Assembly: GCA_018368455.1 (NCBI GenBank)
Contig: JAGZEG010000005.1
Location: 104,654 to 168,653 of the forward strand
Reading direction: 5' to 3'
From: Coriobacteriia bacterium
GTDB taxonomy: Bacteria; Actinomycetota; Coriobacteriia; Coriobacteriales; UMGS124
DNA: 64,000 nucleotides
The translations under genes were made by a program, and so were the position numbers. Shown here piece by piece: positions 1 through 61,971 of the stretch (positions are counted from its first letter, which is position 1; each line of letters starts with the position of its first letter). The notes under the pieces are model-generated. The model was not told where the DNA came from and searched no databases. It saw only the letters and a list, made by a program, of their open reading frames with translations.

Positions 1-1613
1 TTTGCGAAGTCGGGCATGTGAGCGGCGAGGATGCGGCCGAACGAGTCGGTGAGCGCCCCGCGCGCGCCGTCGTCCAGCGCGTAGCCCTCCTTGGTGGCCA
101 TCCCCTCGAGGATCTGCGTGAGCTCGGGCGCTGTGTAGTCGGGGAAGTCGAGGTAGAAGCCGATGCGGTCGCGCAGGCCTGGGTTCTTCGAAATCATCTG
201 GTCCATCGGCTTTGTGTAGCCCGCCATGATGATGACGAGCTCGTCGCGGCTGTCTTCCATGGCTTTGATGAGCGTGGCGAGCGCCTCCTCGCCGAAGTCA
301 TGTCCGCCCTCGTACATTCCCAGCGCATAGGCCTCATCGATAAACAGCACGCCGCCGCGGGCCTCCTCGACGACGAGCTTTGTCTTGACGGCCGTCTGTC
401 CCACGTATTGGCCGACGAGCGACTCGCGGTCAGTCTCGACGAACGGGGCGTCCTTCTTGATGACGCCGCGCTCGCGCAGCAGGTCGGCGAAGATGCGCGC
501 CATCGTTGTCTTGCCGGTGCCGGGGTTGCCGCGGAATGCCATGTGCAGGCAGGGGCGCTGGTCGGTGGGGCAGCCTGCGGCGTATGCGGCTATCTCCTCA
601 AGCTGGCGCCTGACCTCTCCCATTCCCACGAGGCTGTCGAACCTTGCCTGACCTTGCGTGCTGTTCGCATCGATCAGGCGCTCGAGGCCTTCCTTGGTGA
701 TGGGTTCTGGGCCAAAGAACCTGCGCCTGGGGCGCTTTTGGATTAGCTTCATGTTCTCGGGCTTGTCGGGAGACACCTCAAGCGGGCTGAGCTGGCAGGC
801 GCATTTGAAGAAGTCGCTTACGCGCTCTTCCGTCTTGGCAATCCAGGACGTGGCTACGGCTTCCGACCTGCGAAAGCGATAATCGCCAAACCGGGGCCTG
901 ATGCTGCCCACGAAGTTTATCCACAGCGAACCGTCATCTTCGCGCGATGCGTCATACGGCCCGATGAGAAAGCCGTTGCCCCAAACGGCGTTCGCGTAGC
1001 TGAGACACGTTGCGAGCGTGTCAAGGTCTGGTCCCTTATCGAAGAGCATGTCGAGCGTGAAGTAGGCGGTGTCGGTGTCGGTCGTGAGGAAGGCGTCTGC
1101 GTCGGTGTGTCGACGTCCAAGGCGGAGCTCTTCTGCGCTGATCCTCCCTCCGTAGCTGTTGCGCTGCCAGTCGTTCAATATCGAGCAGAGTTCGACATCG
1201 GCGAGGTTTGCGAGTCCTGGATGCAGCGACGTGACAACGACGGGCTGTGCGAAGGTCTCCTCAAGGTATGTTTTGAGGCGTTCGTTGAGCAGCTCTTGCT
1301 CGCTGGGCTGCTCAACGGGGGTTTCTCCAGAGCCGTCTTTCTTCTCGTCGTCGCCATCTTTCGCTGCGTCGCTGGGCTTGCGCTCCAGGCTTGTCGACTG
1401 CCTGCCGACAAACGAGAGGTCCCAAGAGCCATCGGGCAGCTGCTCGGTGCCGGATGGATAGATTGATTGGACAGTGCCGCTTATCATGTTGACGGCACAT
1501 ATGATCTGCGACATGTGCTCCCAGTTCGGCTCGATTGTGAAGTGCAGTGTCGCGTGAAACTCGCTGACAGGGCGCTCTGGCGCGGATACGACCGTTCCTG
1601 GTTGTGTGGACAT
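1..1613 (-). CDS. AAA+ ATPase of the SpoVK/CbxX/EccA-like clade with a ~290-aa uncharacterised N-terminal region. Partial: the 3' end leaves the window.
   Basis: Own minus-strand translation. The ORF is missing from the track because it has no stop inside the window. ATG at 1613 is preceded by GAAAGGAG. An in-frame open reading runs to nt 1. Walker A GNPGTGKTT at ~504-530, Walker B VLFIDEAY, then ELVIIMAGY...LRDRIGFYLDFPDY. The 18..746 + ORF is its antisense shadow. Confidence 0.8.
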   Translation of the reverse strand, partial: MSTQPGTVVSAPERPVSEFHATLHFTIEPNWEHMSQIICAVNMISGTVQSIYPSGTEQLPDGSWDLSFVGRQSTSLERKPSDAAKDGDDEKKDGSGETPVEQPSEQELLNERLKTYLEETFAQPVVVTSLHPGLANLADVELCSILNDWQRNSYGGRISAEELRLGRRHTDADAFLTTDTDTAYFTLDMLFDKGPDLDTLATCLSYANAVWGNGFLIGPYDASREDDGSLWINFVGSIRPRFGDYRFRRSEAVATSWIAKTEERVSDFFKCACQLSPLEVSPDKPENMKLIQKRPRRRFFGPEPITKEGLERLIDANSTQGQARFDSLVGMGEVRRQLEEIAAYAAGCPTDQRPCLHMAFRGNPGTGKTTMARIFADLLRERGVIKKDAPFVETDRESLVGQYVGQTAVKTKLVVEEARGGVLFIDEAYALGMYEGGHDFGEEALATLIKAMEDSRDELVIIMAGYTKPMDQMISKNPGLRDRIGFYLDFPDYTAPELTQILEGMATKEGYALDDGARGALTDSFGRILAAHMPDFA

Positions 1614-1757
1614 GTGCGCTCCTTTCTCGTTTTTCCTTCTTCAAGAATGAGGTAACCGGAAACCACAGTTGCATACGCTATCCTAACCGTGCGACAGAAA
1701 CCCTGCAAGACATTATAGGCTTACAAGTTATGACGTCTATGTGAGCAGTAGAGACTA

Positions 1758-1787
1758 TTGACATCAAGTTTGCGCGAGTGATATATT
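1758..1787 (+). promoter_or_regulatory. Sigma-70-like promoter for the 1861 gene
   Basis: TTGACA (1758-1763), 18-nt spacer, extended -10 TGaTATATT (1779-1787). It sits in the AT-rich divergent intergenic region ~75 nt upstream of the ATG. Confidence 0.5.
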
Positions 1788-1860
1788 TGGACTAACAACA
1801 TAGTAATAACTAGAGAATGCACAACAGAAGAAACGCAAGCTATTCGGCAAAGGAGGAGCA

Positions 1861-2304
1861 ATGAACATTTCTATTCAGGAGTGGATGTATGAGACGCCGG
1901 CATCAGGGATGGGGCTGGCAGTCCTCGCCTATGTGGCCAGCGAGGCTCGCCCCGTCACCGCGTTCGATGTCTCACGCGCCTTCAGGCTCGGCAGACCCGA
2001 GGCGGGCTGGGAGCTGGAGGGCCTTGCGCGGGCGGGTTTGTTGGAGGCGACGCTGGACGAGGACGGCGCTGCTGGGTACGTGCTGCGTCCCGGTCTTGGG
2101 GAGGGCCCCTCGGGCGGGGCTCGGGTGAGTGGTCCCAGCCTGTCTCTCGTGGAGGGTGGTGCAGGTGATCCCGGGTCCGAACCCACCTACGGCGGGCTGT
2201 TTATCGCATCCGGAGGGTCATCACGCGAAGCTCCTCGTCGCAAGGGACTCCGCCTTGTGGCGCCGGCTGGGGATTCGGACGCCCTTGGAAGCTGGTGTGC
2301 GTAG
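1861..2304 (+). CDS. Small winged-helix (MarR/wHTH-like) protein with a G/S/P-rich tail
   Basis: Strong RBS AAAGGAGG 5 nt before the ATG. The segment LAVLAYVASEARPVTAFDVSRAFRLGRPEAGWELEGLARAGLLEA...GYVL has a helix-turn-helix plus wing pattern. Confidence 0.6.
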   Translation: MNISIQEWMYETPASGMGLAVLAYVASEARPVTAFDVSRAFRLGRPEAGWELEGLARAGLLEATLDEDGAAGYVLRPGLGEGPSGGARVSGPSLSLVEGGAGDPGSEPTYGGLFIASGGSSREAPRRKGLRLVAPAGDSDALGSWCA

Positions 2305-2394
2305 CGGTTCTGTTTTGCGGAGCCACATTTCGACCCACCTGGGGCGGACCGACGCCCTGCGAGTATTGACCTATTTCTCGAAGGGAGATTTCTT

Positions 2395-3474
2395 ATGAGT
2401 CACTACGTATTGCCGGATCCTTCCCTGCTGGAAAAGGGCGGGGCGGGACCGCACCTGCTCTCCACCGTGTCGAGCTTGTATGCGCCACGGGACCTCAGTT
2501 TATCCGGGAAACTGTCGCCTGTCCGACTTGGTGACGTGCTGCCCTTTGTTGACGGCGGTCCGCTCGACGTCGCCGTGGGCTTTGACTTTGACGGCAAGCC
2601 CGTTCACATTGATCTTGCTGAGCTGGGCAGTCTCCTGGTGTCTGGCACGACTGCCGCGGGGAAAACCACTATGCTCAGGTCGATTATCACGTCCATACTT
2701 ATGCGGGCGACCCCTGATGAGGTGCGCCTCATCTTGGTGGACCCTAAGAAGGTCGAGCTTGGGGATTATGACGGCATCCCCCACCTTCTCGCGCCCCGGA
2801 TTACCGACGCGCGTTGGGCCGTCTCTGTGCTGAGGTGGTGTGTCGCCGAGATGGATCGGCGCCTCAAGGTATTCGCCGACGCTGGCGTACGCGACTTGAG
2901 AGGCTACAACGATCTCGTGGACCGCGGCTCTCTCGGGGAGCGGGATTCCCCTCTGGAGCGCCTGCCCAGCATCGTTATGGTCGTTGACGAGCTGACCGAC
3001 CTGATAATGTCGGCTCAGGAAGACGCCGAGACCTCAATTGTGCGGATTGCCCGGCTGGGTCGTACCGCCGGCGTACATCTGGTGCTGTCCAGCCAATCGG
3101 CACGCCCTGACATCGTTACGGAACCCATACTCGCTGGCTTCAGCTGCCACGTCGCCCTCAAGCGGCATAACAGTGTCGAATCTAAGCGCCTCATCGGACG
3201 TTCTGGTGCGGAGCTTCTGCGGATGCTCGGGGACATGCTGCTCTTGCTCCCAGGCCCAGACGAGGAACCGCGGCATGTCCAGGGGTGCTACCAATCTCAG
3301 GGGGAGATCCAAGCCGTCGTGGAACACTGGAGAGGACAGCCTGCCCCATGCTGCGATGCAGGAATGGCTCCATTGGATGAGCCAGATGTCTCTGGCGAGG
3401 AGGAACCGAGCAAGACGTGGCCCGGAAGATGGTCGGGTATTTGGAAGACTAGAGAGGAGACGACGTGCCGATGA
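2395..3474 (+). CDS. FtsK/SpoIIIE-family DNA-translocase ATPase, motor domain only (359 aa)
   Basis: Walker A GTTAAGKTT, LILVDPKKVELGDYDGIPHLL, Walker B VMVVDELTDL, and GVHLVLSSQSARPDIVT. No hydrophobic N-terminal segments. RBS GAAGGGAG. Confidence 0.85.
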   Translation: MSHYVLPDPSLLEKGGAGPHLLSTVSSLYAPRDLSLSGKLSPVRLGDVLPFVDGGPLDVAVGFDFDGKPVHIDLAELGSLLVSGTTAAGKTTMLRSIITSILMRATPDEVRLILVDPKKVELGDYDGIPHLLAPRITDARWAVSVLRWCVAEMDRRLKVFADAGVRDLRGYNDLVDRGSLGERDSPLERLPSIVMVVDELTDLIMSAQEDAETSIVRIARLGRTAGVHLVLSSQSARPDIVTEPILAGFSCHVALKRHNSVESKRLIGRSGAELLRMLGDMLLLLPGPDEEPRHVQGCYQSQGEIQAVVEHWRGQPAPCCDAGMAPLDEPDVSGEEEPSKTWPGRWSGIWKTREETTCR

Positions 3475-5237
3475 AAGACGAACACCCAGAGGTTGTAGGC
3501 TCCGTGGACCCGGCAAGCCCGGTGTCGGACTCGAAAGCGCCCGATGCGTCGCAAGATGTGCAGCCGGATGCCGCCCAAGATCCTAGCGAGCATGCACCGA
3601 GCCCTCGGGCTCGTAAGCATCGCATGAGGGACTTCACGTGGGGCCTCGGATACTGGCTGCCTGACGTGCAGAAGGCGGTGCTCCCGGAAGAGCTGCGCTT
3701 TCCTGATATGCTCGAAGCGGCGGGGGCAACGCGCGGGGAGGGCATGGTGCCGCTCTCGTCTGCGATGCCGACCGCGCAGCTGCGCATCGACGCGTTTCTG
3801 CCTGGTCTCGACGCTCTGACCCGGAGGCGCTACCTGAGGTCGCGTGCGAATGCGTTTCGCGTGTACCCCGACGGGACGCTGCATCTTCTGACGCTCAAGC
3901 GGGGCGTGCTGAGGGTGCACGATGACGCAAGCGCTGAGGAGATGCTGGCGGTCTGTCGCGAGTTCGGGCTGCTCCCGGAGCTAGGCACACTCGGCGCTGG
4001 CGTCGAGATCCGTACGAATCAGGAGGCGCTTGCTTATGCGTGCATCGTGAGCATGGAGTTCCTGCACGAGTGGGATTACGACGAGATCGCTGCCTCCCTC
4101 TGGCCCGATGTCGCCGAGCTGCTGCGGGCCGGGCGCATTAGTCCGAGCGACGTTGTGGCGACCGAAGGGTATACCGACACCATGCGTTACCGCAACCGGG
4201 CGTCTGAGTGCCTGGCATATCGCGTGCTCATGGGCGCAGAGGCCGCGGAGCCTAAGGTTTGCCGGAGGCTTGTCGAGTGTCTTGCGGCTCTACACCGATT
4301 TGCGTGCGACGAGAACTTTGACATGGAGGGAGAGATGCTCGCTTGGAAGGACCTACTGATCGCTGCCTACGCGAAGCATCCGCTCATCTTCCGTGACACG
4401 ATCTTGGCTCCCAACGAAATCCTCGGCTTCCACGACTACGGCGAGGATTACCAGAAGTCGTTCGATCGCTTCTACGGAGACCCCGCTCGCGCGATATTCG
4501 CGGCGCTTGAGGCGGGGAGCGAGCAAGCCGTGGAGGACGCGCTCGTGGCGTACGATCGCACCATGTTTCCGTGGAACTACGACATGGGCGGCCACCTGTT
4601 CCCCGGGGCGGGTGATGCAGGCAAGTGGGAGGATGGGTTCCGCCCTGACTATGACGAGTATTGGGAACACCCCGCAGACTCTTCGGAAGACGATGACGAG
4701 TGTTCGGATGAGGACGATGGGGACGCTGCCGAGGGCCCGAATGACGAACCTCCTGAGAAGGAGGAGGGGGCGAGACGTGCCGCTCCACCTCGCAGGAAGC
4801 TGGATCGCGATGAGATGGTGTTCCTTGCGCGGTGCCGTCTGATGACCGCTCGTCCTAACGGCTATGCTCTGTCGGAGGAAGATCCTTCCTGCGACCCACA
4901 ATGGCTCACCGACTGCCGGCGCAGCATCGAGGCGCTGCACCAGCTGGCGGGTGAGGTCCTGCCGGCCTCGGCCACCGTCGACGCTGAGCTTCGTGCGTGG
5001 TGCAAGCCCCTCTTCCTGATGCTTGCCGAGCACGAGGACACGGTGATCGACGTGTGCTTCGACGAGGCGGAAGCGATCTCCCGTGGCCAGGAGGATGACA
5101 TGCCTGGTGGGCTCGATTGCCGGCCCGCTGCCCAGGCGGTACTCGTGGCCCTGCGCTCCGGCGACCTGGATGCGCTGAGTACGGCCCTTGACGACTTGGA
5201 GGAGGCCGCCTATCCGCTGCCCCGCCGAGACGACTGA
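3471..5237 (+). CDS. Hypothetical 589-aa acidic protein with no recognisable motif
   Basis: ATGA start/stop overlap with the FtsK ORF (3471-3474), with GGAG upstream. A GTG at 3465 is an alternative start. Codon usage is GC3-rich like its neighbours. Contains an acidic run SSEDDDECSDEDDGDAAEG. Confidence 0.6.
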   Translation: MKDEHPEVVGSVDPASPVSDSKAPDASQDVQPDAAQDPSEHAPSPRARKHRMRDFTWGLGYWLPDVQKAVLPEELRFPDMLEAAGATRGEGMVPLSSAMPTAQLRIDAFLPGLDALTRRRYLRSRANAFRVYPDGTLHLLTLKRGVLRVHDDASAEEMLAVCREFGLLPELGTLGAGVEIRTNQEALAYACIVSMEFLHEWDYDEIAASLWPDVAELLRAGRISPSDVVATEGYTDTMRYRNRASECLAYRVLMGAEAAEPKVCRRLVECLAALHRFACDENFDMEGEMLAWKDLLIAAYAKHPLIFRDTILAPNEILGFHDYGEDYQKSFDRFYGDPARAIFAALEAGSEQAVEDALVAYDRTMFPWNYDMGGHLFPGAGDAGKWEDGFRPDYDEYWEHPADSSEDDDECSDEDDGDAAEGPNDEPPEKEEGARRAAPPRRKLDRDEMVFLARCRLMTARPNGYALSEEDPSCDPQWLTDCRRSIEALHQLAGEVLPASATVDAELRAWCKPLFLMLAEHEDTVIDVCFDEAEAISRGQEDDMPGGLDCRPAAQAVLVALRSGDLDALSTALDDLEEAAYPLPRRDD

Positions 5238-5313
5238 CGGCGTTTGGCCGGCGCGGCTGCGTTCCTGGGAGGGCGCTCAAGGATGGCTGGCCTGATGCCC
5301 TGCATGGGCCCTC

Positions 5314-5355
5314 CATCCCCGGGTGCCATCAAGATTGGGATGGTACCCGGGGATG
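5314..5355. terminator. Hairpin between convergent genes, a possible bidirectional terminator or module junction
   Basis: catccccgggtgccatc / ggatggtacccggggatg gives a ~17-bp stem with one G:U and a 6-7 nt loop. There is no flanking U-run on either strand. Confidence 0.35.
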
Positions 5356-5421: not shown

Positions 5422-6753
5422 TTATACCAAGAACTCCCCCTCGCTTTCCCGCATACGCTTCGCGAACTCTTTGAAGTCGCAATCGCCCGACGGTATCTGC
5501 AGCCCGCGCTTCTTGACGACAATGTCCTTCCGGGCTTCGACGTTCTCCTCGAAGGTGCTTCCCCTGTTCAGATGCAGGGTCACGTCTTGTGCTTTCTCTT
5601 TTTCCGGCGCGAATGGGTAGAGATAGTAGCCCGTCTTCGCGTCGAAGCGGAACATATAAGCCAGTAGCTGCTGGTAGTCGCGGCCTGATATGTTGCTGGC
5701 CGGTTTGTACTTCGCATCAGCGATCACCCGGACTTCACTGTCTCTGCCGATGAAGTCCGGGAAGATTAGCCCCTTCTCTCTGCTTTCTTCGCCCCAGAAG
5801 AGCTGCTGGCCGTTCCTCTCTTTCCCACGTCCCTTGTTTTTTGGGTGATAGAAGGCGTCTCTCATTAGAGTCGCCACGTACTCTTCCCAGAGCCACGCGC
5901 CGTCGAACAGCACGCCATATATCTGCTGGTCGCTCGTCCCGACCAGGTGCTTTCTATTTTGCAAGATCAGAAGACAGAGACGCTGTAGTGATCGATAGTC
6001 CCGGTAGTAGGCGTGGCGCACGGGATGTTTTCTGTTGGCCTCGATGACGCGTCGGGTATCGCGGGGAGAGAAGCCGGGTGTCAGCTTTTTGACAAGGGCC
6101 ACTTCATCTCTGGCTCTGGAGAGCAAAGCCTCGCCATAGGTCCTTCCCCTGACAACCTCTATGGTGTGCCTCACGAGCTCCATCAGGTCATTGTCGTAGG
6201 ACAGCTCCCTTTGGCTATAGGCGATCTTGCCGACGAAGGGAGTATTGCTTGCGATGTGCCTGGCAATGTCTATCGCACCGCGTACGTTGGCGTCGTTGTG
6301 CAGCCGTCTAACATACTCCTTGTAGGGGCCCTTTCGCATCGCTCGCTTCAGATAGCGGGGGAGCAACAGGGCTAGGTAGTCAAACAGGTTTCCGCTCAGG
6401 CTGGCGTCGGTTGGCAGGTCAATGATATTGGGAAGATCGAACACCCTGGCAATCATGTACTGCAGGAAGCTGTCGCGCCCGTCTTTGCCACTGAAGCGCG
6501 ACGATATGACGAGACGTTCCTCCCCTAGGCCGAGGAATCCCATCACGTTTCCTGTGCGATAGTTGCCGTCTATGCTTTGGAGAACCTCTGCATTCCCCTC
6601 AAGATCTTCGGCGTTCCTTATCGCCTCCGGAAGTACAAAAACGCCGTCCTTCTCAAGCTGGCTGAGGGTTCTGTCCGCGACTGCTTGCGCAAGGTGAGGG
6701 ATGCTGTCTAGGAACTCCTCCTTCTTTTTGCTGGAGTTGTCCTCAGTTCTCAT
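5422..6753 (-). CDS. mcrC: McrC-family nuclease subunit (system 1)
   Basis: C-terminal PD-(D/E)xK core: IFPDFIG...VIADAKYK. It overlaps the stop of the upstream McrB-like gene. Start is ATG 6753, with GTG 6771 as an alternative. Confidence 0.8.
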   Translation of the reverse strand: MRTEDNSSKKKEEFLDSIPHLAQAVADRTLSQLEKDGVFVLPEAIRNAEDLEGNAEVLQSIDGNYRTGNVMGFLGLGEERLVISSRFSGKDGRDSFLQYMIARVFDLPNIIDLPTDASLSGNLFDYLALLLPRYLKRAMRKGPYKEYVRRLHNDANVRGAIDIARHIASNTPFVGKIAYSQRELSYDNDLMELVRHTIEVVRGRTYGEALLSRARDEVALVKKLTPGFSPRDTRRVIEANRKHPVRHAYYRDYRSLQRLCLLILQNRKHLVGTSDQQIYGVLFDGAWLWEEYVATLMRDAFYHPKNKGRGKERNGQQLFWGEESREKGLIFPDFIGRDSEVRVIADAKYKPASNISGRDYQQLLAYMFRFDAKTGYYLYPFAPEKEKAQDVTLHLNRGSTFEENVEARKDIVVKKRGLQIPSGDCDFKEFAKRMRESEGEFLV

Positions 6754-8062
6754 TGGATGCACCGCTGTCACCTGTGGTGGGCTTCTTCTGTTTGGAGGAG
6801 AATGCCGCCTTGAATCCCTCCACGGCTTCTTCCGCGTCGGGCATTCCCTGGACGTAGTCCCTCAACAGCGGCTCGAGGTAGTCCTCCCAGAGCTCATTGG
6901 GCTTGAGTTCCTGCAACTTCTTGAAGTATGCTGCGCCTATCTGGTAGTTCCGACCCAGCTCACTGGTGTCTTTTATCGCCTTATTCAGGGATTTCATGCG
7001 ATCAATGGCATCCTGATATTCCTTTGCATCCAAGCCCTTTAGTGCATCCAGGCAGCTGTCAGCTTCGAGCTCTATGAAGCGGAACCTGCGGCGCATGGCG
7101 AAGTCGAAGCTGTCCACGGAGCGGTCGATGTCGTTCATCGTGCCGATGATGTACACGTTCTCTGGGATGTAGAAGCGCTCGCTCAAGTCATCGTGCAGGT
7201 TGGAGTACTGGGTCGACACCGCGCCCGACTCACCGCGATAGCCCGGGTCGATCGAGAAGAACAGCTCGCCGAAGATCTTCGAGATCTCCCCGCGGTTAAT
7301 CTCGTCGATGATGAAGACATAGGACTCGAGTTGAGGGATCGTGCCGGATGAGGTGCTCGCGGCGTGTTGCCGCTTCACGCGGCGCTTGCATATCTCATGG
7401 TACACGCCCCAATAATATGACCAACTGCTGTTCTGACGGTTTTTCCCAAAGAAGAGGGCAACTTCTCCGGGTCCTTCGAAATCCTTACCAGACTCGAGCA
7501 TCCTGGGAATGTAAGATGTGAATAGAGTTTTTCGATTGGATGATGCGTTGTTAGGGATAAATACATGGATGAGTCGTTCGCCTACGTCAGTGATAACGAA
7601 TTCTTTTCCCGTCTTTATCTTGAAAGGCGTTGATCCCAGCTCAATGCTTGAAAAGAACGAGCTCATCTCCTCCTGCGCGGACCGCTCTTTTGCCAGTTCG
7701 TTCGCGTCTTTGTGCGAGTCTTCCCAGTTCTTTCGGGCGCGATCGACAAAGCTCTTGAAGATGCCGTCACGCAGCTCGAAGCCCATAGACCCGTCGTCGT
7801 TCACCATCGGGCGCAGGCCCTCGACGAAGTCGGTGTAGTCATAGCTCGGGTGAAACTGCACGAACTCGATTCTTTCTTTTTGCTCGCTTGTGAGGTCCTC
7901 GTATTTCTCGCACGTGCCGTCGCTGACGATGTCTGCAGCTATCTGTTTTGCGAGATAGGACTTCCCGGTGCCGGGTGCCCCGTGAAAGATGACGTTCTTT
8001 GATTTACGTACTATAGTTGAGTAGTCATTAATAGTTTTTGGTTTATCCATAGGACTCTCCAT
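6743..8062 (-). CDS. mcrB: McrB-family AAA+ GTPase (system 1). It has no N-terminal DNA-binding domain but a large insertion inside the AAA+ core.
   Basis: FHGAPGTGKSY, FVQFHPSYDYTDFVEGLRP, FIIDEINRGEISKIFGELFFSID, and NVYIIGTMNDIDRSVDSFDFAMRRRFRFIEL. ATG 8050 has the better RBS (GGAGAG); ATG 8062 is the track start. Confidence 0.9.
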   Translation of the reverse strand: MESPMDKPKTINDYSTIVRKSKNVIFHGAPGTGKSYLAKQIAADIVSDGTCEKYEDLTSEQKERIEFVQFHPSYDYTDFVEGLRPMVNDDGSMGFELRDGIFKSFVDRARKNWEDSHKDANELAKERSAQEEMSSFFSSIELGSTPFKIKTGKEFVITDVGERLIHVFIPNNASSNRKTLFTSYIPRMLESGKDFEGPGEVALFFGKNRQNSSWSYYWGVYHEICKRRVKRQHAASTSSGTIPQLESYVFIIDEINRGEISKIFGELFFSIDPGYRGESGAVSTQYSNLHDDLSERFYIPENVYIIGTMNDIDRSVDSFDFAMRRRFRFIELEADSCLDALKGLDAKEYQDAIDRMKSLNKAIKDTSELGRNYQIGAAYFKKLQELKPNELWEDYLEPLLRDYVQGMPDAEEAVEGFKAAFSSKQKKPTTGDSGASNEN

Positions 8063-8113: not shown

Positions 8114-8152
8114 CTCGCCTGGGGCTACCACAATGGCAAAGTCCCAGGCGAG
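8114..8152 (-). terminator. Weak hairpin after the nuclease gene
   Basis: ctcgcctggg / cccaggcgag gives a 10-bp stem with a 19-nt loop. No U-run follows. Confidence 0.3.
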
Positions 8153-8159
8153 TCCACCC

Positions 8160-9425
8160 CTAGAAGGTGATTCCGGCGACGCGGGCTGCGTACTCCTCGG
8201 GGAGCTTCGAGAACAAGTCGCGCTCGAAAGCTTTGAGCTGACTCAGGGCTTTGTCCAGGGAGGCGAAAACCTCGCCGTCCGTAAAGCCCTCTTCAAAGGA
8301 CTTGTTCTGGGAGTAGTTCCAGTGCACCCTCCAAAGCCAGTTAGCCCCTTTCTTCGCCGACCCCTTCGTGGGGTAAAGGTCATTGATGGCCTCTGCAATT
8401 GCCTCCTGGTCCGATGGTAGCCCTTGATGATTGAGGGCCAATTTAATGCGCATCTTGGCGTTTCCCCGAGCACTGCCTCTCCCGCGCTCTATTTCGAAGA
8501 AGTAATGGTTGGCCGTTGACCAGCCGCTGTTTGCTTCCGGGCCATCGGGCAACAGCAGGGACATCTCGGGTGTGGTGAAGCGGGTGCAGGTCTTCACACA
8601 TTTGTCCTCATTCAAGATGAGCTCGCCGGAGCGCTGCTTCTCCCGGGCCCACCTAACGCAGGCATCTGCAAGCTCGGAGATCGCGTCGGGCAGGTTCTCG
8701 TAGATCAGGTCAAGTGCCCGTCGGTGCCTCGCGTATATGTCCCTGCAGACCCTCGCAAGCTCCTCGTCCTCCAAGACATCCCTCCTTATCGTGTCGACGT
8801 AGTCGTCGATGAGCATGCGCGGTCCCTCGGCAAGCTCGGCCCCGTCGGTTGCCGATCCGATGATTCTCAGCACGTCCTCGTAGCTCATCGGGAACCACGT
8901 GTCGGGGTCTGAAGCTTCGGCACCCTCCGGGGAGAGATAGACGAAGCGTCGGCGGAAGCCTGGGTAGGCGTGCTCGATTGTCTTTCGATACCTATCAAGC
9001 TGGTTGTCGTGCTCCCCGGTGCCGATCTTGTTTTCGATGCACAGGACGTATTTTTGGGTTTCTGAGACGGCTAGGATGTCGATGCTCTGCCATTCGCGCA
9101 GTACCGCGAAGTCGCGACAGTCCATGAGCAGGTCATCGAAGGCCTCCGCGTCGGGCAGGGACTCTGCCACGTGGCGCACGAAGCCCTGCATGACCCGGTC
9201 ACCCAGGCCGTGGTTCCCTTCGGGGTCCATGAGCCAGGCAAGGGCATTGCTGTGCCTGATCTCCACCCGGGAGATGCCGAGGACGTCGAACGTGTTGAAG
9301 CGCCTCGTCCATTTCGAAAGGCGATCGAGGCAGCCGATGTCCAGCAGGAAACGCCGGATACACTCCTCGTCCGTTCCCTGGGGATCGAGAGAAGCTGGGG
9401 CAGATTGATTGCCGCTTTCTAGCAT
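8160..9425 (-). CDS. PD-(D/E)XK nuclease family protein. The N-terminus is PDDEXK_4-like and the C-terminal part is DUF4268-like.
   Basis: FNTFDVLGISRVEIRHSNALAWLMDPEGNHGLG, followed by DILAVSETQKYVLCIENKIGTGEH (a D...E-x-K core). Family names are recalled from memory, not searched. Confidence 0.75.
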   Translation of the reverse strand: MLESGNQSAPASLDPQGTDEECIRRFLLDIGCLDRLSKWTRRFNTFDVLGISRVEIRHSNALAWLMDPEGNHGLGDRVMQGFVRHVAESLPDAEAFDDLLMDCRDFAVLREWQSIDILAVSETQKYVLCIENKIGTGEHDNQLDRYRKTIEHAYPGFRRRFVYLSPEGAEASDPDTWFPMSYEDVLRIIGSATDGAELAEGPRMLIDDYVDTIRRDVLEDEELARVCRDIYARHRRALDLIYENLPDAISELADACVRWAREKQRSGELILNEDKCVKTCTRFTTPEMSLLLPDGPEANSGWSTANHYFFEIERGRGSARGNAKMRIKLALNHQGLPSDQEAIAEAINDLYPTKGSAKKGANWLWRVHWNYSQNKSFEEGFTDGEVFASLDKALSQLKAFERDLFSKLPEEYAARVAGITF

Positions 9426-9443
9426 AAGCCGCAGCCCTCTCTT

Positions 9444-10370
9444 CTAGGATTTATCCTTCGTCTGCTCCCCAAGAAGACGGTCGTACTCGTTGACGAGGTC
9501 GTGCAGGAACGCAGCTCCTGCCTCGGGATCGCTCGTGACGAAGGAATCGAACGGATAGGCGGTTTTGTCGCCATTATAATAAGTCGAGAGGAGCGCTCTG
9601 GGCTCCGAGTCGTCGGCCTCGGGGCTGCCCGGGGCTGCAGGTGCAACGCCTGGATGAGAGGGGAGCACGGCGCTGGTGGCCCGGATGCCGAGGTCTCGCG
9701 CGATGTCTGGTGGCGTTGGCTGGACCTGATCACTGAGCCCGAATTTTAACTCGTCAAATGCATTCAGCTGCCAGACGTTTCCCTCTCTGACTGTTATGGC
9801 TGCCGGATAGTACGAGTTGTGACGGCCCTTCAGGGCCCCGATGTCGAAAGGCGCCGGTCCTAACTTCTTCCCTATGGGCCGGGGATCGCCAGGGAAGAAA
9901 CGGCGCAAGGCCTCGTGGGCGCGCTCCAACTGCGGGGCGTACCGGGCGATGGCCTCCATGACCTGTTCGCCCATCAGAGTATTTCCCGGGGTCCAGCCAA
10001 GGGAGCCATCTGCGTAGCGAAGCACGGGGGTCGGAAGATAGAGATAACTCTGGAGAGAATAGCTGTCCAAATCATCAAGATCATCGAGGGTGGCCTGATC
10101 GATCAAATCCGAAGCCTCGAATCTCATCTCGATGCAGCAGTCTGTTCCTTTGATTGGGGCCTGCAGGAGGAGATCCCCGTGGAGTCCGGTATCTCCTTTT
10201 CCCACGTCGAGATCACACTGCGAGACGTGCCAACCATCGTATTCGCTTTCTCCGAGGCGCGTCTCCAGTTCATCGACCTGTTGCCAGAGCTCTTCAATGT
10301 AGGAATTTACCTCATCGAGGGACTGCCGGATGGTGCTGAGCGCGCTCATTAGCGTCGACATGTATTGCAT
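9444..10370 (-). CDS. Hypothetical 308-aa protein with an N-terminal coiled-coil-like segment
   Basis: ATG 10370 has RBS GAAGGAGGGGG; the upstream extension in the track lacks one. The stop lies 18 nt before the nuclease gene start. N-terminal segment reads LDEVNSYIEELWQQVDELETRL. No motif recognised. Confidence 0.65.
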   Translation of the reverse strand: MQYMSTLMSALSTIRQSLDEVNSYIEELWQQVDELETRLGESEYDGWHVSQCDLDVGKGDTGLHGDLLLQAPIKGTDCCIEMRFEASDLIDQATLDDLDDLDSYSLQSYLYLPTPVLRYADGSLGWTPGNTLMGEQVMEAIARYAPQLERAHEALRRFFPGDPRPIGKKLGPAPFDIGALKGRHNSYYPAAITVREGNVWQLNAFDELKFGLSDQVQPTPPDIARDLGIRATSAVLPSHPGVAPAAPGSPEADDSEPRALLSTYYNGDKTAYPFDSFVTSDPEAGAAFLHDLVNEYDRLLGEQTKDKS

Positions 10371-10676
10371 GGATACCCCCTCCTTCTCTGGTGTGATTAT
10401 CCTCGCTCGTCGGCAGCGGGTGGATGGCTTTCGTATCAAGAAATACGTCTTTGATGACGGCGGCGCCTCTCCGACCGTAGCCTCGTGACGAGGCCTTCTG
10501 ATATGGTGCGGGGCCGCCTACCCACAGCCCCGCGAGTTGGCTGACGGCACCTGGTCGACGCGACCGTGGCCCCAGGAGAGCACTCGCGACGCTCGTGATC
10601 CGCGGCATCCAAACTCGCTCGATAATCGAGTCCAAAATGCCTCGAAAATCGAGTGTGAATTACCTCGAAAATCTAG

Positions 10677-10952
10677 TATGAGCAGATAGTTGATGCTGAC
10701 GGGCTTGAAGTCGACGCCATTATCGAGCTGAGGGATGGGCGTTGGGCGGGCATCGAGATCAAGCTGGGGGAGGAGAAAGTGCCGGATGGCATCGCAAATC
10801 TCAACCGGCTACGCAAGAAGGTCGCCGCGAACCCGGCGGCGCGCAATCCCCGCCCTGAGTTCATGGCCGTGGTGACGGCGACCTCCCCCTTCTGTCGCTA
10901 TGATGCCGAGAATGACGTGTATGTGTTTCCGATTACCGCCCTGAGGGCATAG
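10677..10952 (+). pseudogene. 3' fragment of a DUF4143-type AAA ATPase gene (about the last 90 codons only)
   Basis: An open frame without a start codon reads YEQIVDADGLEVDAIIELRDGRWAGIEIKLGEEKV...VYVFPITALRA*. This matches the C-terminal restriction-endonuclease-like DUF4143 module. An in-frame TAG lies at 10674. Confidence 0.6.
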
Positions 10953-10961
10953 GGGAATCCG

Positions 10962-12404
10962 CTATGCCCTCAGCGAGTCTCTAATCCCTTCCAGGAGCTC
11001 CCCGATCGTTCCCCTTTGGTTACCTGGGCCACCTTTGGGTGCTGTCCCCGGCAGTATGGAGCTCTCGCTGTGGAGGGACAGGTCGAGCATGAAGACTCTA
11101 ACGCGGAGCCCTCTGCCATCCGCCCCATCGCTGACGAACTTCTTCTGCCAGCCCGCCATAAGCCCTTGCGACTTTGGATATACCAGCACGACGTCGCTGA
11201 CCTTGTAGCGCTTGCCATAGGCGTACATCTGATAGAGGTCGTTTCGCGACGGTTGCGGGTTGCTACCGTCTAGCCGCTTCCACTTGGTGTCAAGGACGAC
11301 AGCAGGCTTCGGCTGGCCTCCCGCCTCTCGCTTCAGTATGACGATGTCAGGCGTCATCCTGATCCCGGCCCCGTCGCCTTCTTTTTTGTCGAAGAGATCC
11401 CGGACGGGCCCCTGTGTGCGGATCTCGATTGCCGACCCGTCGAGCGCCCCATTTTGCAAGGCCCGCCTCATGAGGTAGGGCACGTAGTCCTCGAAGACGC
11501 GCTCCATCGGGAAGAGTAGGGCTTCGCTGACTGTGGGGCCACTGAAAGCGGTGAATGAGCTACCCTCCAGGAAGATGCGCGCCCACTCAAGGGCCTGAGC
11601 GTAGTCGTCGAGGTTGCGATCTCGAACGCAGAGTGACGCCGCCTTGCGCCAGTCGGGCGTATCGTCCACGCCATCGAACATCGCCAGGAGCCTGCGGATA
11701 CGCGTGCGGTTCTCGGAGCTCGTGCTCCTGTTGAGCAGCCGTGCGAGCGCCGCCTTGATGACGCGGTTCTCCGGGCGGTTGAGCCCAAACACGGCGTGGC
11801 GCACGAAACACCGCGACCGGTCGATGGGATTGGCCCGCAGGTCTTGCGCCACGAGGAGCCGACCGCGCAGAAAGCGCTCGTTAGAATCGCGCGGGGTGTA
11901 CCCGGAGCGCAGGCCGCGCTGGGCGAGTCGTTCGACCTCCTCGACGAACATGCGGATGAACAGCTCGTAGAGCGGCATGCGATGGGAGAACAGCGACGAG
12001 CGCCCCAAGTGCTTGAACGAGGTGCCGCGCAGAGCTGCGAGCATGCGGATGAAGGCCTCTTTCGTTTGCTCGAGGCCGTCGCTTGAAGGGCGCTCGTTGC
12101 TGGCGGTTTCCAGGTCGAGCCCCGCTATCTTTGGCAGAATCTCGACGGTGAATCCGTTCTTTGTGGTGAGGACGCCCACGTAATTGCGCGCTTGGATCGA
12201 GCGCTGGCGTTCTGCCATGCCCAGGCGCATGATCTCGATGGGGTCCTCCGAGTCGACGTCTCGCTCTGCCGCTCGAAGGATGAAGTCATAGAGCTGGTTG
12301 AAGGCGTCTTCTTCCATGGACGTGCAGCCAGGACTCGGGCTGTCCTGGCTGCCGTCACTTACGAGCTTGTCGAACTCGCGGATTTGAATGAGGTTGCGAG
12401 GCAT
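10962..12404 (-). CDS. mcrC: McrC-family nuclease subunit (system 2)
   Basis: MPRNLIQIREFD... N-terminus and C-terminal core TPDIVILK...VVLDTKWK...LYQMYAY. ATG 12404 lies 1 nt after the mcrB stop (TAAcATG). The 141-aa upstream extension in the track overlaps mcrB and is rejected. Confidence 0.85.
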   Translation of the reverse strand: MPRNLIQIREFDKLVSDGSQDSPSPGCTSMEEDAFNQLYDFILRAAERDVDSEDPIEIMRLGMAERQRSIQARNYVGVLTTKNGFTVEILPKIAGLDLETASNERPSSDGLEQTKEAFIRMLAALRGTSFKHLGRSSLFSHRMPLYELFIRMFVEEVERLAQRGLRSGYTPRDSNERFLRGRLLVAQDLRANPIDRSRCFVRHAVFGLNRPENRVIKAALARLLNRSTSSENRTRIRRLLAMFDGVDDTPDWRKAASLCVRDRNLDDYAQALEWARIFLEGSSFTAFSGPTVSEALLFPMERVFEDYVPYLMRRALQNGALDGSAIEIRTQGPVRDLFDKKEGDGAGIRMTPDIVILKREAGGQPKPAVVLDTKWKRLDGSNPQPSRNDLYQMYAYGKRYKVSDVVLVYPKSQGLMAGWQKKFVSDGADGRGLRVRVFMLDLSLHSESSILPGTAPKGGPGNQRGTIGELLEGIRDSLRA

Positions 12405-12405: not shown

Positions 12406-14670
12406 TTATGCGTCCGCATCCTCGTCGCTGGCTTGGTTGCTCTCGTCGGCGGCTGCCTCGGGCTGGCGAGACCTATAGGGACCGAAGCTCTCGTAGATGC
12501 GCCGGAAGTCGCTTGCGGACCACGCATTGCCGTCCGTCCTGTCGATGACCTCGAAGCGCGCTCCGACGGTATCTGCCATGTTGTCGAGAATTCCGAGGTC
12601 GATCCCGAGGGACTCGCTCTCGTCATCTCCGATCTTGTGCACGAACTTCCCGTCCCTGTCGTTGAGTACGGCGCGGATGAGGTCGTAGTCCTCAAAGAAA
12701 TAGTCCTGCAGCAGCGGGATGATCTTGCCTGCGAACGCCTGCCTGATGTCGCCGAGCGAGGCGACCTTCCAGAATAGGGAGTGGCCGAGCACGTGGTCGC
12801 GGTCGAGCAGCGCCTCGATGCGCGCATTCATTGCCTGGAGCATCCAGGGGACATCGACGCCATCGACAATGCCTTCGTTTCCGAGATGGTTGCGCAGGGC
12901 GTCATAGTCTGGGCCGACCTCCTCGAACGAGAAGCGCCGCCTGAACGCCGCGTCGAGCTTGGTGAGCGAACGGTCGGCCGTGTTCATCGTCGCGATGATG
13001 TGGACGTTGCCCGGGATGCCCCACCTCTGCTTGGAGTAGGGGAGCAGGACCGTGCGCTCGTCTTCGCCACCGAGCCGCTTGTCTTCTTCGAGCAGCGTAA
13101 TAAGCTCGCCAAAGATGGCCGCCACATTTCCGCGATTCAGCTCGTCGATGATGAACACGTAGGCGTCGCTGGGGTGGTTGGCGGCTTTTTCACAGAAGGA
13201 TTTGAAGACGCCGTCTTCTACTGCGTACGCGAGTGAATGGCTGTCGTCCGGGCTGGTACGTTCCCCGTCCGTAAGAACGGGGCGAATGCCTTCGACGAAG
13301 TCCTCATACGAGAACGATTGGTGGAACGACACAAAGCCGATGCGGCCTTCATCTTCGAGAGCTTTGTAGCGATCGGAAATCTCATCCCAGTCATCGGGCA
13401 CGTCGCTGCCGATGATGCCGACGGCACGCCGTTTCGTTTGATACGTCTTTCCCGTCCCCGGCGCACCGAAAAGGACGGTGTTCAATGCAACGCTCGCATT
13501 GTTCTGGCGCATAGGCCGATCGATGACACTTGACTCTGGAGCGAGCCCTCCTCCTAGCTCATTCTGGATATGGAAAAACTGCTGCTCACTAATCTCGTCA
13601 AGAGTTATCCCTCGTCGGCCGAGATTGCCCATCGTTGAAACCTGAGAGTCATCCTTCAAGGTATTGAAAGGTACGGGATTGTTGAAATTTGCCAATCGCC
13701 TAAAATATAACGCGGATCCATCATACGGTTTGGTGGCTTGTAATACGGAACAGGCTGCCTTAATAGGCGTTGCCATATATGCAATAAAATAGTCACCTGT
13801 ATTTATATGCTTAAAACAATCTATTTTTTTCAGGCTTTTTCCATTTTGTCTTTTGGTGTGAAAAATCATTTCCTCGTCAGTGGGGGACTGGCGGGGATCC
13901 CATTCTCTCGGGGAGAGGTTCAGGAACATATAACGAGGTGCGGAAGATACGTTGTTGCCGTCTTGCCTGGCGGCAGCATAAGCCCGCTCCGAGAGGTGGG
14001 GGATGTCGTCCTCAGCTAGTTTGTTTGACAAAAGAGCTTCTTGAATGCGATCTAGAGCATCAAGATACCGAGCGCCGCTGGATGAACTCCACTCGATATC
14101 AGGTATCAATGTTCTGAGCGGGCCGTACTCTTTGAGATTTCTATCAAGAGGAGGAAAAAAGTCGGGGCAAATATAGAACAAGCATTGCGGGAGATTGCTG
14201 TCCGCTACGCCCTTTATTTCAAGTGCGCGATCGTAATCTTTGTAAAAAGAATTCTTTTCTGAATCACCCTGGTTTTTACTCAGTCTCCGGGCAGACTTGA
14301 AAAGTTGCCAGAGGGCAGGGACGCTTTCCTCCTGGGAATCTGCATCTGCGAAGAGCCACCACGCATTGGCTGTGGGGAATCCGGGATAGGCGGATGGAAT
14401 GTCTCCAGAAAGATTAAGTCTTGATTTTAGCTCTAGTAGTATACTTCTTCTTGTTCTATCATTATACCTAAATATCTGAATATAAAAAGAGAACGGATCC
14501 ATGAGCGAAGGAAATAAACCGTTGTTTGTTTTTGGCCTCGCAGAGTCGGGGACAATGTTCGTCTTTATCTGTTCAAGTAATTCGATTAGCTTATCACTGC
14601 AGAATTCAAATTGAGTTAGTGATTCATTAATACTGCTAATTATATGGTAATTATGGTAATCAGGGCTCAT
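12406..14670 (-). CDS. mcrB: Long McrB-family AAA+ GTPase (system 2, 754 aa) with a ~400-aa N-terminal sensor region that includes an EVE/PUA-like module
   Basis: FGAPGTGKTY, VSFHQSFSYEDFVEGIRP, FIIDELNRGNVAAIFGELITLLE, and NVHIIATMNTADRSLTKLDAAFRRRFSFEEV. EVE-like stretch at ~13555-13941: YMFLNLSPREW...TGDYFIAYMATPIKAACSVLQAT...NPVPFNTLKD...ITLDEISEQQF. ATG 14670 has RBS GGGAGGGTGG. Confidence 0.9.
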   Translation of the reverse strand: MSPDYHNYHIISSINESLTQFEFCSDKLIELLEQIKTNIVPDSARPKTNNGLFPSLMDPFSFYIQIFRYNDRTRRSILLELKSRLNLSGDIPSAYPGFPTANAWWLFADADSQEESVPALWQLFKSARRLSKNQGDSEKNSFYKDYDRALEIKGVADSNLPQCLFYICPDFFPPLDRNLKEYGPLRTLIPDIEWSSSSGARYLDALDRIQEALLSNKLAEDDIPHLSERAYAAARQDGNNVSSAPRYMFLNLSPREWDPRQSPTDEEMIFHTKRQNGKSLKKIDCFKHINTGDYFIAYMATPIKAACSVLQATKPYDGSALYFRRLANFNNPVPFNTLKDDSQVSTMGNLGRRGITLDEISEQQFFHIQNELGGGLAPESSVIDRPMRQNNASVALNTVLFGAPGTGKTYQTKRRAVGIIGSDVPDDWDEISDRYKALEDEGRIGFVSFHQSFSYEDFVEGIRPVLTDGERTSPDDSHSLAYAVEDGVFKSFCEKAANHPSDAYVFIIDELNRGNVAAIFGELITLLEEDKRLGGEDERTVLLPYSKQRWGIPGNVHIIATMNTADRSLTKLDAAFRRRFSFEEVGPDYDALRNHLGNEGIVDGVDVPWMLQAMNARIEALLDRDHVLGHSLFWKVASLGDIRQAFAGKIIPLLQDYFFEDYDLIRAVLNDRDGKFVHKIGDDESESLGIDLGILDNMADTVGARFEVIDRTDGNAWSASDFRRIYESFGPYRSRQPEAAADESNQASDEDADA

Positions 14671-57591: not shown

Positions 57592-58303
57592 AAGTCTCTC
57601 TGCCTCGGTTTCTTGGGCTAGCCGAAGATCCAGGCGATGCTTTCGACTACAAGTCTATCGCTGCCCGTTGCGTCGGTTTGCTGGACGGCTGGGTGCCGGT
57701 CTCATCTCGGGTGCTGCCTCTCGGCGGGCCACTTTCAAGCAGTTGGGTGGAAGAACCGCCTGAACGGCGTCGCGCACCGGCACCTGTGCGGTGTTGCAGG
57801 GGCCAGTTTGCACGAAATCGGCCCGTGATGGCCTGGAAAGCCGTCTGTGTATGGCGCATACCGATATGCCCTGCTGGTGCGGCTCCCTTTTGAGGCCGTC
57901 GGCCTGGCTTTAGGGTGTCGTGCATGTACATGATCGACTTTTTTGCCCAAAAATCGAGCCTTCGCCTGCAGAAGCCCAAGTCGCCGGCTCTGATCGCTTC
58001 ATTGTTGCGGCGCTTAGGCTGTTTCGGGGCGAATCGATCCACGCTGGCCTTGCGGATCGTGGATGGCGTGCTTTTCGATGGCTTGCTAGGCGATTGGAAA
58101 CAGACGGCGTGATGTTTCCGACGCCTGCGGCCCGTTGGGGTCATTCTGTCGGGCGAGCTCTGGCCAAATGAGGCCCGTCTGCGCGAGGAATCCCGAATCT
58201 CTTTTCTGCTGGTTGCAGGCGGAATGGCTTGTCCATGCGTCACAATGGGACGCGTTGCTTTCGTTGGTTTGCGGTATCGTGGGCCGTAGGGGGAGGGATG
58301 TGC

Positions 58304-60445: not shown

Positions 60446-60653
60446 TTCAGAGTATGCAACGCTTTTGGTGTTTCGCTTACTAAACCGAAAAGCTTTGAAT
60501 GCATTTTGGCGGTCTACATTCCGTGAAGTGAATAGTTGTCGGGTAATCTAGATGAGTTGAATTTTGCCTAATACATATAATTCAACTGGAGAATTCTTGC
60601 GCGATGGGGCGCTCTTGTTTTTTGTGAACGCCTTGGTTGGATGGGAGATGTGT

Positions 60654-61835
60654 ATGTCACTGAAGATTGCAGTTGCTGGCGCGGGCTATGTGGGCCTTGC
60701 GAATGCCGTCATGCTGGCACGCCATCACGAAGTTCGCCTCGTTGATGTTGTCCCGGAGAAAGTCGAGCTCATCAACCAGGGGACTTCTCCCATTATTGAC
60801 CGTGAAATCTCGGAATATCTAGGCAAAAGCGATCTGAACTTAACGGCGACGCTAGATGCGCCCTCCGCATATACCGGAGCCGATATAGCTTTCATTGCTA
60901 CACCTACAAATTACGACGAGGAAACTCACGCTTTTGATACCTCTTCTGTCGAAGCGGCATATCGCGCAATTCGCGCGGTGAACATCGCATGCCCGATCGT
61001 TATCAAGTCGACCGTTCCGATTGGGTATACCCAACGCCTGCGCGAAGAGGCGTCCGATGACGCGATTCTGTTTTCTCCCGAATTCTTGCGGGAGGGCAAG
61101 GCCCTGTATGACTGTCTGCACCCCTCGCGTGTCATTGTCGGCGCGGCCGACAAGAATGATCCTCGTGCCCGACAAGCGGCCGATCTTCTTGTTGAAGGAG
61201 CGCTTGACGAGAATGTTCCCGAGCTGGTTATGCAGTCCACCGAGGCGGAGGCTGTCAAACTTTTTGCCAACACGTATCTCGCCCTGCGCGTAAGCTACTT
61301 CAACGAGCTGGATACGTTTGCTGACGTGCGAGGGCTTGATGCACGGTCAATCATCGATGGCGTCTGCCTCGATCCACGCATTGGCGGCCACTACAACAAT
61401 CCGTCCTTTGGCTATGGCGGCTACTGCTTGCCCAAGGACACGAAGCAGCTGCTGGCCAACTACGACAACGTTCCGCAGAACCTCATGCAGGCCATTGTTG
61501 ACTCGAACCAAACGAGGATGGCATACATCGCTGAGACCATATTGCGAAACAATCCGAAGGTTGTCGGCATCTATCGACTCACAATGAAGTCAAATTCCGA
61601 CAACTTCCGCCAGTCTTCGATTCAGGGCGTCATCAAGGAGCTGCGCAGGCGTGGTGCGACGATTCTGATCTACGAGCCTATGGCCCAGGGGGCGGAGTTC
61701 ATGGGTCTCGAGGTTACGAAGGATCTGGAGGACTTTAAGCGCCGTAGCGATGCGATTGCAGCAAATCGCATGTCGCCCGAGCTGTGCGACGTTGCAGATA
61801 AGGTGGTCACGCGCGACCTGTTCAAACGGGACTAA
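60654..61835 (+). CDS. ugd: UDP-glucose 6-dehydrogenase
   Basis: [16 protein letters not shown] and catalytic [14 protein letters not shown]. 393 aa. Confidence 0.9.
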
Positions 61836-61971
61836 GGGCGGAGCGCTGAAGCGAGGCCGAGATCCAGGCAACTGCGAGCCCTTCTGGGGAAGAGACGATT
61901 TACTGGCTTCTTGGCGCAGCATGTAGAACGTCAGACCAGGCGTGTTTTGCGCGAGCGGCAAAGGAGAGTGC

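Follow-up and report, generated by a model that had tools for sequence, protein, structure and literature searches.

Comparative genomics of a lineage-restricted ORFan, a candidate PDC-S26 nuclease and an McrBC pair in a Coriobacteriia defence island

Variable defence islands and hotspots exchange cassettes between conserved flanks. Here we analyse a defence island from the genome of a gut Coriobacteriia bacterium, found in a window (i.e., the whole stretch of DNA that was analysed) of 64,000 nucleotides (nt) from contig JAGZEG010000005.1. The island is bounded by rplM-rpsI on one side and by an FtsK-like/AAA gene cluster on the other, and its minus-strand gene order is McrB2, McrC2, an open reading frame (ORF) of 308 amino acids (aa), a 421-aa nuclease, McrB1 and McrC1. 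An earlier examination of the DNA without database searches (henceforth referred to as the sequence-only reading) had described the 308-aa ORF with its strong ribosome-binding site (RBS) and the nuclease with its D...CIENK core lying 18 nt downstream, and had placed this pair between two McrBC systems, on the strand of system 1. We found the coordinates and motifs to be as described, and AAA_5 and PF10117 matches confirm the identities of both McrB/McrC pairs. The same reading went on to propose that the pair constitutes an undescribed two-gene defence system or, alternatively, provides accessory subunits of a four-gene McrBC variant. We consider it probable that the locus consists instead of independent modules that have been juxtaposed in a recombination-prone island.

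The described systems closest to this locus differ from it in several ways. McrB1/McrC1 share with the canonical McrBC of E. coli (McrB/McrC) the Walker A motif, the NxxD signature, the PF10117 domain, the D...DAK motif and an operon-like overlap, but McrB1 has no N-terminal DNA-binding domain, and the extra PD-(D/E)XK gene upstream is not a general feature of the McrB1 family. CoCoNuT systems are characterised by an NxD variant of the GTPase signature, by long coiled-coils that are in most cases fused to CnuB, and by tandem nucleases of the HEPN or another type (Bell et al., eLife 2024, PMC11090510). The window locus bears a superficial likeness to them, in that McrBC is accompanied by an additional nuclease and by a protein whose helix resembles a coiled-coil; however, this helix spans ~40 residues and belongs to a protein of its own, which is not conserved alongside McrB, and the extra nuclease comes from a solitary family. 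CoCoNuT membership was rejected, as both McrBs in the window carry the NxxD rather than the NxD signature (MNDID in McrB1, MNTAD in McrB2), and no HEPN domain was found at the locus. Finally, the PDC set comprises 145 untested candidates that were nominated by guilt-by-embedding, i.e., from homologues embedded in BREX, DISARM or Type I restriction-modification (RM) operons (bioRxiv 10.1101/2024.01.29.577857). With one of these candidates, PDC-S26, the window nuclease shares an end-to-end model match, the D-ExK residues and the absence of a conserved partner gene; whereas the candidates were nominated inside BREX, DISARM or Type I RM operons, the window nuclease lies between an ORFan and an McrBC pair.

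The nuclease and the neighbourhoods of its homologues

The 421-aa nuclease, which had been regarded as an orphan, turned out to be a full-length member of PF14281 and PDC-S26. Specifically, it matched PF14281 with E 1.7e-32 (113.3 bits, compared with a cut-off of 22.3) and the PADLOC PDC-S26 model PDLC04972 with E 1.4e-120 (401 bits, profile positions 6-388 of 397). PF14281 was one of two families that the sequence-only reading had put forward for a profile check; the other, DUF4268, gave no match at E ≤ 0.1. The motifs FNTFDVLG, HSNALAWLMDP, HGLG and CIENK are all present, and both the residues D116, E131 and K133 (IDILA...CIENK) and the H58-S59-N60 block are invariant in an alignment of 36 nuclease sequences. 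In the AlphaFold model, which has a predicted local distance difference test (pLDDT) score of 80.7, an alpha/beta nuclease core at the N-terminus is followed by a second, distinct alpha/beta domain at the C-terminus. Foldseek comparison of this model with PDB returned only weak matches to restriction-endonuclease folds (HindIII, the DdmD nuclease domain, Hjc and Can2), and one 200-aa viral PD-(D/E)XK protein was matched over the N-terminal domain with E 1.2e-11. The ratio of nonsynonymous to synonymous substitution rates (dN/dS) of the nuclease gene is 0.14-0.15. On its profile matches we assign the nuclease to the catalogued candidate single-gene defence family PDC-S26 as a new member, giving a Coriobacteriia example of this candidate family, and consider it plausible that it is a defence gene.

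Homologues of the nuclease form at least 638 clusters at E 1e-10 or better, most of them with 45-54% identity, and come from Bacillota, Pseudomonadota, Spirochaetota, Bacteroidota and other taxa. The family is also present on 24 plasmids, where it is annotated just as "PD-(D/E)XK nuclease family protein", and in the searchable literature PF14281 is mentioned solely in a 2012 paper on PD-(D/E)XK classification.

We then examined the genomic neighbourhoods of these homologues in 80 loci fetched from species-representative genomes of many phyla, 75 of which were analysable (a genome scan with the single nuclease sequence returned nothing, and it was an alignment query that recovered the 80 loci). 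A relative of the 308-aa protein was encoded at none of the 80 loci, and an McrB-like gene was found within 8 kb at just three of them. The ORFs beside the nuclease homologues varied widely in size and orientation. Among 138 immediate neighbour ORFs, Pfam matches were spread over 138 different families, with the commonest one found in 5 ORFs; few of these neighbours were defence-like (two C5 methyltransferases and some ATPases) and many were housekeeping genes. Such heterogeneity fits a solitary, single-gene nuclease. The sole recurrent association seen for PDC-S26 homologues was with a neighbour carrying a ~145-aa domain (DUF6508 in at least five cases, sometimes fused to a Macro domain), which made up the biggest neighbour cluster with 8 of the 75 loci (L016, L025, L027, L031, L032, L033, L047 and L050). 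The nucleases of the window and of the related island L013 adjoin McrBC.

Homologous islands and the probable loss of an ancestral gene order

We compared the window with homologous islands; the comparison comprises four lineages, all of them related Coriobacteriia. NCBI lists a partial protein with 100% identity to the window nuclease under this taxon name. Four contigs from different samples (L001-L004) carry P0002, a 301-aa homologue of the 308-aa protein. Relative to the window, their flanks show 95-96% identity and the segment containing the 301-aa gene and the region upstream of it shows 79.5%, while window positions 9422-5403 (i.e., nuclease, McrB1 and McrC1) are swapped for an unrelated 722-aa McrB and a 352-aa McrC. 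The nuclease is thus absent from the P0002 loci. The breakpoints in L001 are sharp: one coincides with the nuclease start codon, and homology is back 19 nt past the McrC1 stop codon. At the first of these, window 9422-9540 and L001 8480-8572 match at 100% identity across the final ~100 nt of the 308-aa gene, the 18-nt spacer and the ATG of the nuclease, compared with 60-90% identity per 50-nt bin in the remaining part of the gene. L001 therefore retains the RBS and the start codon of a nuclease that it does not have, and diverges thereafter.

The fully identical tract would be a recombination tract that forms the left edge of the exchanged cassette. Together with the shared spacer and ATG, it suggests that a window-like arrangement once existed in the L001 lineage and that the 3' end of the 308-aa gene served as a homology arm when the cassette was exchanged. 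The window and L001 resemble other variable defence hotspots in their highly similar flanks, swapped McrBC interior and sharp breakpoints, but no integrase or transposase was seen in the swapped segment, and the exchange apparently took place by short homology. The locus would thus illustrate clearly how the 3' end of an ORFan can anchor the exchange of cassettes. The alternative cassette of L001 (8705-11955) encodes an McrB with DUF8425/DUF8426 and a weak nSTAND3 match, the N-terminal part of which resembles PADLOC PDC-S02.

The opposite loss was observed in L013. Here the nuclease is 85% identical to that of the window, and nuclease, McrB and McrC are kept in the same order (85% and 79% DNA identity), yet just the last 25 codons of the 308-aa gene remain, as part of the 52-aa ORF P0124 (9824-9982), which ends in the C-terminal helix of the 308-aa family and has the same junction to the nuclease. 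A further 43 nt (8498-8540) of the upstream region of the 308-aa gene are also left, and the two remnants are separated by ~1.35 kb of unrelated DNA containing an 83-aa ORF with a sub-threshold match to HicA_toxin (E 1.5e-3). On a third contig, k141_151979 (covering L011 and L005), a nuclease homologue with 74% identity and P0003, the 307-aa homologue of the 308-aa protein, are found on the same strand but ~20 kb apart. Between them lie an inverted AddAB-like block, an McrBC pair and five unknown genes, with the inverted block (L011 11459-18898: PDDEXK_1 of 480 aa, UvrD-like helicase of 761 aa and PDDEXK_1 of 1152 aa) parting the nuclease from McrBC. The five unknown genes, which lie on the same strand downstream of McrBC (L005 1565-9313; 373, 816, 316, 86 and 891 aa), have no Pfam or PADLOC match. 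A similar gene set is present in L013 (15061-21260; 368, 807, 314, 366 and 412 aa), with no match in the precomputed table, and this block may be an undescribed system of its own.

Taken together, the order 308-aa gene, nuclease, McrB and McrC was probably the ancestral one in the clade and was later disrupted in three ways, which suggests that each partner is maintained without the other. In these contexts both the 308-aa gene and the nuclease are under purifying selection, as judged by dN/dS. The sequence-only reading had itself named linkage of the two genes across genomes as the check on its proposal, and here the proposal failed: P0002 occurs without the nuclease, P0003 is ~20 kb away from it, and L013 has a 25-codon remnant. 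A handful of close relatives thus sufficed for comparative genomics to separate the locus into pieces. The idea that an unknown gene lying between defence genes is the signature of a new system was right in recognising a defence island, but comparative genomics indicates that the functional unit was misjudged.

The 308-aa protein and the nuclease therefore appear, from this comparison, not to be a conserved system, and we regard a new two-gene defence system (e.g., a sensor or inhibitor acting with a nuclease effector) as very unlikely. Such a system would account for the 18-nt spacing with its RBS, which suggests co-transcription or translational coupling, for the junction kept in both L013 and L001, for the hairpin that closes the unit directly after the nuclease, and for the position inside a defence island. 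It is difficult to reconcile with the reciprocal loss in L001 and L013, with the ~20-kb separation on k141_151979, with a nuclease family that is widespread without such a partner, and with the 308-aa protein matching no PADLOC model. The natural series of reciprocal losses argues instead that the nuclease acts alone.

If the locus is indeed a juxtaposition of independent modules, the 308-aa gene would probably have its own promoter and, given the gap of just 18 nt, would most likely share one transcript with the nuclease in the window, without the 308-aa protein being an obligate partner of the nuclease. The N-terminal domain of the nuclease would cleave DNA and its conserved C-terminal alpha/beta domain might sense the target or regulate activity, so that the protein would act alone as a single-gene restriction-like effector on invading DNA, as PADLOC's authors proposed for PDC-S26. 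Transcription would then end at the hairpin at 8114-8152, and McrB1-McrC1 is a separate Type IV unit.

Several observations weigh against this reading. One is that the 18-nt gap is too short to hold a promoter or terminator, which makes a single transcript of the two genes probable; another is that their junction survives in L013 and L001, which would make the adjacency ancestral. Furthermore, all three close relatives of the nuclease (at least 72% identity) are found in islands with 308-family sequence. With four lineages that are all related, the comparative statistics are weak, and a trans-acting copy of the 308-aa gene may be present elsewhere in the L013 genome, of which 21 kb of contig was read. 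Lastly, the defence role of PDC-S26 is a prediction, and many immediate neighbours of its homologues are housekeeping genes. Three features, namely the conserved junction between the 308-aa gene and the nuclease, the 75-nt repeats flanking the module, and a synonymous divergence (dS) of the ORFan four times that of McrC2, keep the alternative explanations alive.

The 308-aa protein and the shortened McrB1

The 308-aa ORF starts at an ATG (10370) with AAGGAGG 7 nt upstream, and a longer form with a TTG start (331 aa) is probably not used. A word-indexed search of 5.8 billion clusters found two homologues, P0002 (69% identity) and P0003 (46% identity), and no others; an exhaustive profile search of 1.84 billion representatives added just the 52-aa remnant and a coiled-coil false positive (P0125). 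The family thus totals three clusters and one remnant, all from homologous islands of related Coriobacteriia, and no relatives came to light when JGI metagenome contigs, IMG/VR, plasmids and phages were scanned. Given homologues at these levels of identity and a dN/dS of 0.33-0.37 (compared with 0.14-0.15 in the nuclease), the ORF is a genuine gene under moderate purifying selection. The flanking McrC2 has a dS of 0.12 and the 308-aa gene one of 0.51, a fourfold difference suggesting that the 308-aa gene travels with the variable part of the island.

We found no family match for the 308-aa protein in Pfam, PADLOC, NCBIfam or PHROG, where sub-threshold coiled-coil noise alone was obtained (UPF0184, DivIVA-related), and no match in a profile search of PDB sequences. 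The AlphaFold model was built from 3 sequences and has a pLDDT of 51; Foldseek searches with it gave meaningless matches (best E 0.35). The protein contains LDEVNSYIEELWQQVDELETRL, and residues 2-41 are modelled with low confidence as a single helix. The best-conserved and best-predicted stretch is the invariant DIARDLGIRATSAVLPSHP (residues ~221-250, pLDDT 74-89), which looks helix-turn-helix (HTH)-like by eye; isolated segments of the protein, including this one, showed no HTH or other family match even at E 10.

The sequence-only reading had McrBC system 2 flanking the pair on its other side. System 2 is indeed there, but it does not directly abut the pair, since 590 nt separate the 308-aa gene from McrC2 and contain what is left of a DUF4143 ATPase gene as well as ~320 nt of conserved upstream sequence. 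By comparison with L001-L004, a clean deletion of ~1.05 kb took the 5' part of this ATPase gene. The upstream region (10371-10689) is ~80-86% identical to L001 per 50-nt bin, and its GATAAT box is kept in all three homologue loci. At 240-300 nt upstream of the 308-aa gene, the region also contains a 23-nt motif in three tandem copies (ACTCGATTTTCGAGG...; 10608-10676). L001 has these repeats too, in the interval from which its DUF4143 ATPase gene and 301-aa gene diverge, and L005 lacks them.

One explanation of these features is that the 308-aa protein serves this island specifically, either by binding DNA as a regulator or as an accessory to recombination, and that its gene, above all the last ~100 nt, acts as an anchor for cassette exchange. 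The HTH-like DIARDLGIRATSAVLPSHP, located in the best-predicted part of the model, and the tandem 23-nt repeats upstream of the gene are in line with this, as are the fully identical 3' end and spacer in L001 (against 60-90% per 50-nt bin elsewhere in the gene), the retention in L013 of precisely the 3' piece, and the high dS relative to McrC2. We nevertheless consider this role unlikely: no HTH or other family was matched by the isolated segment, the module contains no recombinase, L005 does not have the 23-nt repeats, and ordinary homologous recombination explains the identical 3' tract without any function of the protein.

McrB1 has the Walker A motif GAPGTGKS, an AAA_5 domain and the McrB lid, and it partially matches PRK11331; its gene overlaps that of McrC1 and probably starts at the second ATG (8050; 435 aa), matching database calls. 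Its Walker A motif begins at residue 28, and alignment with ~58%-identical relatives of ~695 aa showed that it is without their ~250 N-terminal residues. In some of these relatives the missing domain is PF26345 (ScoMcrA_N), and we take it to be the specificity module; the locus thus gives an McrB without a specificity domain. The McrBs of the related islands are graded in length (435, 476 and 537 aa): that of L013 (476 aa) is also without the N-terminal domain and that of L011 retains ~100 residues of it. Short or split McrBs of the McrB1 family were also found without the nuclease in L094 (right after thrS), L095 and L096, and in the latter two the N-terminal domain is present as a separate small ORF. 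The 308-aa protein was rejected as a detached McrB N-terminal domain, as hhalign comparison with 94 N-terminal domains gave a probability of 0.1%.

The nuclease is separated from McrB1 by a gap of 97 nt, the hairpin in which had been described as weak. We found it to be strong: a 10-bp G+C-rich stem with an inner stem begins 10 nt past the nuclease stop codon, and the 100-nt hairpin region folds at -39.5 kcal/mol (z -3.2 compared with shuffles). L013 keeps the hairpin after its nuclease, with a longer stem. The stretch between the hairpin and McrB1 is AT-rich and not conserved.

These observations bear on the proposal of a four-gene Type IV variant, in which the 308-aa protein and/or the nuclease would act as target recognition or second effector for McrB1. 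The four genes are on one strand with short gaps; synteny of nuclease, McrB and McrC is kept in L013, and the McrBs of both islands lack the ~250-aa N-terminal domain. In addition, a 308-family gene heads an McrBC-containing cassette in both the window and L001, and 75-nt direct repeats are found on either side of the four-gene block in the window and of its counterpart in L001. By contrast, the conserved hairpin and the non-conserved AT-rich stretch stand between the nuclease and McrB1, the inverted AddAB-like block splits the nuclease from McrB in L011, and McrB was found nearby at just 3 of the 80 nuclease loci. McrB-McrC pairs with missing or split N-terminal domains also exist without the nuclease (L094, L095 and L096), McrC1 has an intact nuclease motif of its own, and in hhalign comparison the 308-aa protein showed no resemblance to the N-terminal domains of McrBs. 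Considering this, we hold the accessory-subunit proposal to be improbable, with the L013 synteny speaking for it and the hairpin, the rarity of McrB and the solo pairs against it.

A more ambitious version of the same idea is that the ancestral combination of 308-aa gene, nuclease, N-terminally shortened McrB and McrC represents a new multi-component Type IV-like system restricted to Coriobacteriia, with the ORFan (possibly DNA-binding) and/or the nuclease replacing the specificity domain of McrB, and with the 308-family acting as an adaptor that leads different McrBC cassettes, as in L001. We would give this little credence. A 308-aa protein that did cooperate with McrBC-type cassettes would count as a new accessory component, but nothing found here requires that; independent modules account for the locus better.

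Features of the locus and the rest of the window

The coordinates of the features of the locus are listed in Table 1. Base composition and GC content at third codon positions (GC3) did not discriminate between the modules, and simple scans for sigma-70 promoters and terminators were uninformative in this high-GC organism.

Table 1 Features of the defence island in the window, with their positions, strands and supporting evidence.
Feature	Position	Strand	Evidence
Imperfect 75-nt direct repeat, copy A	5204-5278		Overlaps last 11 codons of the 590-aa gene
17-bp inverted repeat between convergent McrC1 and 590-aa gene	5314-5355		z -3.7
McrC1, PF10117 domain, intact D...DAK nuclease motif	5422-6771	minus	PF10117 E 1.4e-50
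McrB1, McrB-type AAA+ GTPase, N-terminal domain missing	6743-8062	minus	AAA_5; alignment with relatives
Strong G+C-rich stem-loop, terminator-like, no U-tract	8114-8152	minus	Folding z -3.2; kept in L013
421-aa PD-(D/E)XK nuclease, PF14281 (PDDEXK_4) / PADLOC PDC-S26	8160-9425	minus	Profile matches; invariant residues; AlphaFold (AF2) model
18-nt spacer with nuclease RBS AAGAGAGGG	9426-9443	minus	Same spacer and ATG in L001; similar junction in L013
Gene of 308-aa acidic protein (isoelectric point 4.4), lineage-restricted ORFan	9444-10370	minus	ORF and RBS; homologues P0002 and P0003; dN/dS
Upstream region of 308-aa gene	10371-10689	minus	Conservation in L001; GATAAT box; 23-nt repeats
Imperfect 75-nt direct repeat, copy B	10512-10585		72% identity to copy A, E 2e-5
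AAA_14/DUF4143 ATPase gene, 3' remnant (270 nt)	10692-10960	plus	Intact 435-aa gene in L001-L004
McrBC system 2: McrC2 (480 aa); McrB2 (754 aa)	10962-12404; 12406-14670	minus	95-96% identical to L001; within the conserved portion of the island

The inverted repeat at 5314-5355 is likely a bidirectional terminator. The 75-nt direct repeats bracket the block from the 308-aa gene to McrC1, and their counterparts in L001 (12649-12723 and 7428-7500) bracket the equivalent block. Copy A covers the final 11 codons of the 590-aa gene, which lies on the plus strand at 3465-5237, while copy B encodes a matching AAYP(L/Q)PR in frame and may be a displaced 3' end of that gene.

The conserved flank at window positions 1-5237 contains an FtsK/SpoIIIE-family gene (2395-3474) as well as the 590-aa gene and a 147-aa gene, both without Pfam matches, and related loci have an AAA/AAA_lid_6 ATPase beside the FtsK/SpoIIIE flank genes. 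This flank could be part of a conjugative or integrative element, though no integrase was seen. At the other end of the window, positions 58229-63399 are low in GC (43-54%, compared with 60-70% elsewhere) and encode a fused GT4-GT2 glycosyltransferase, a UDP-glucose/GDP-mannose dehydrogenase and a TupA-like ATP-grasp protein; this segment is probably a horizontally acquired polysaccharide locus.

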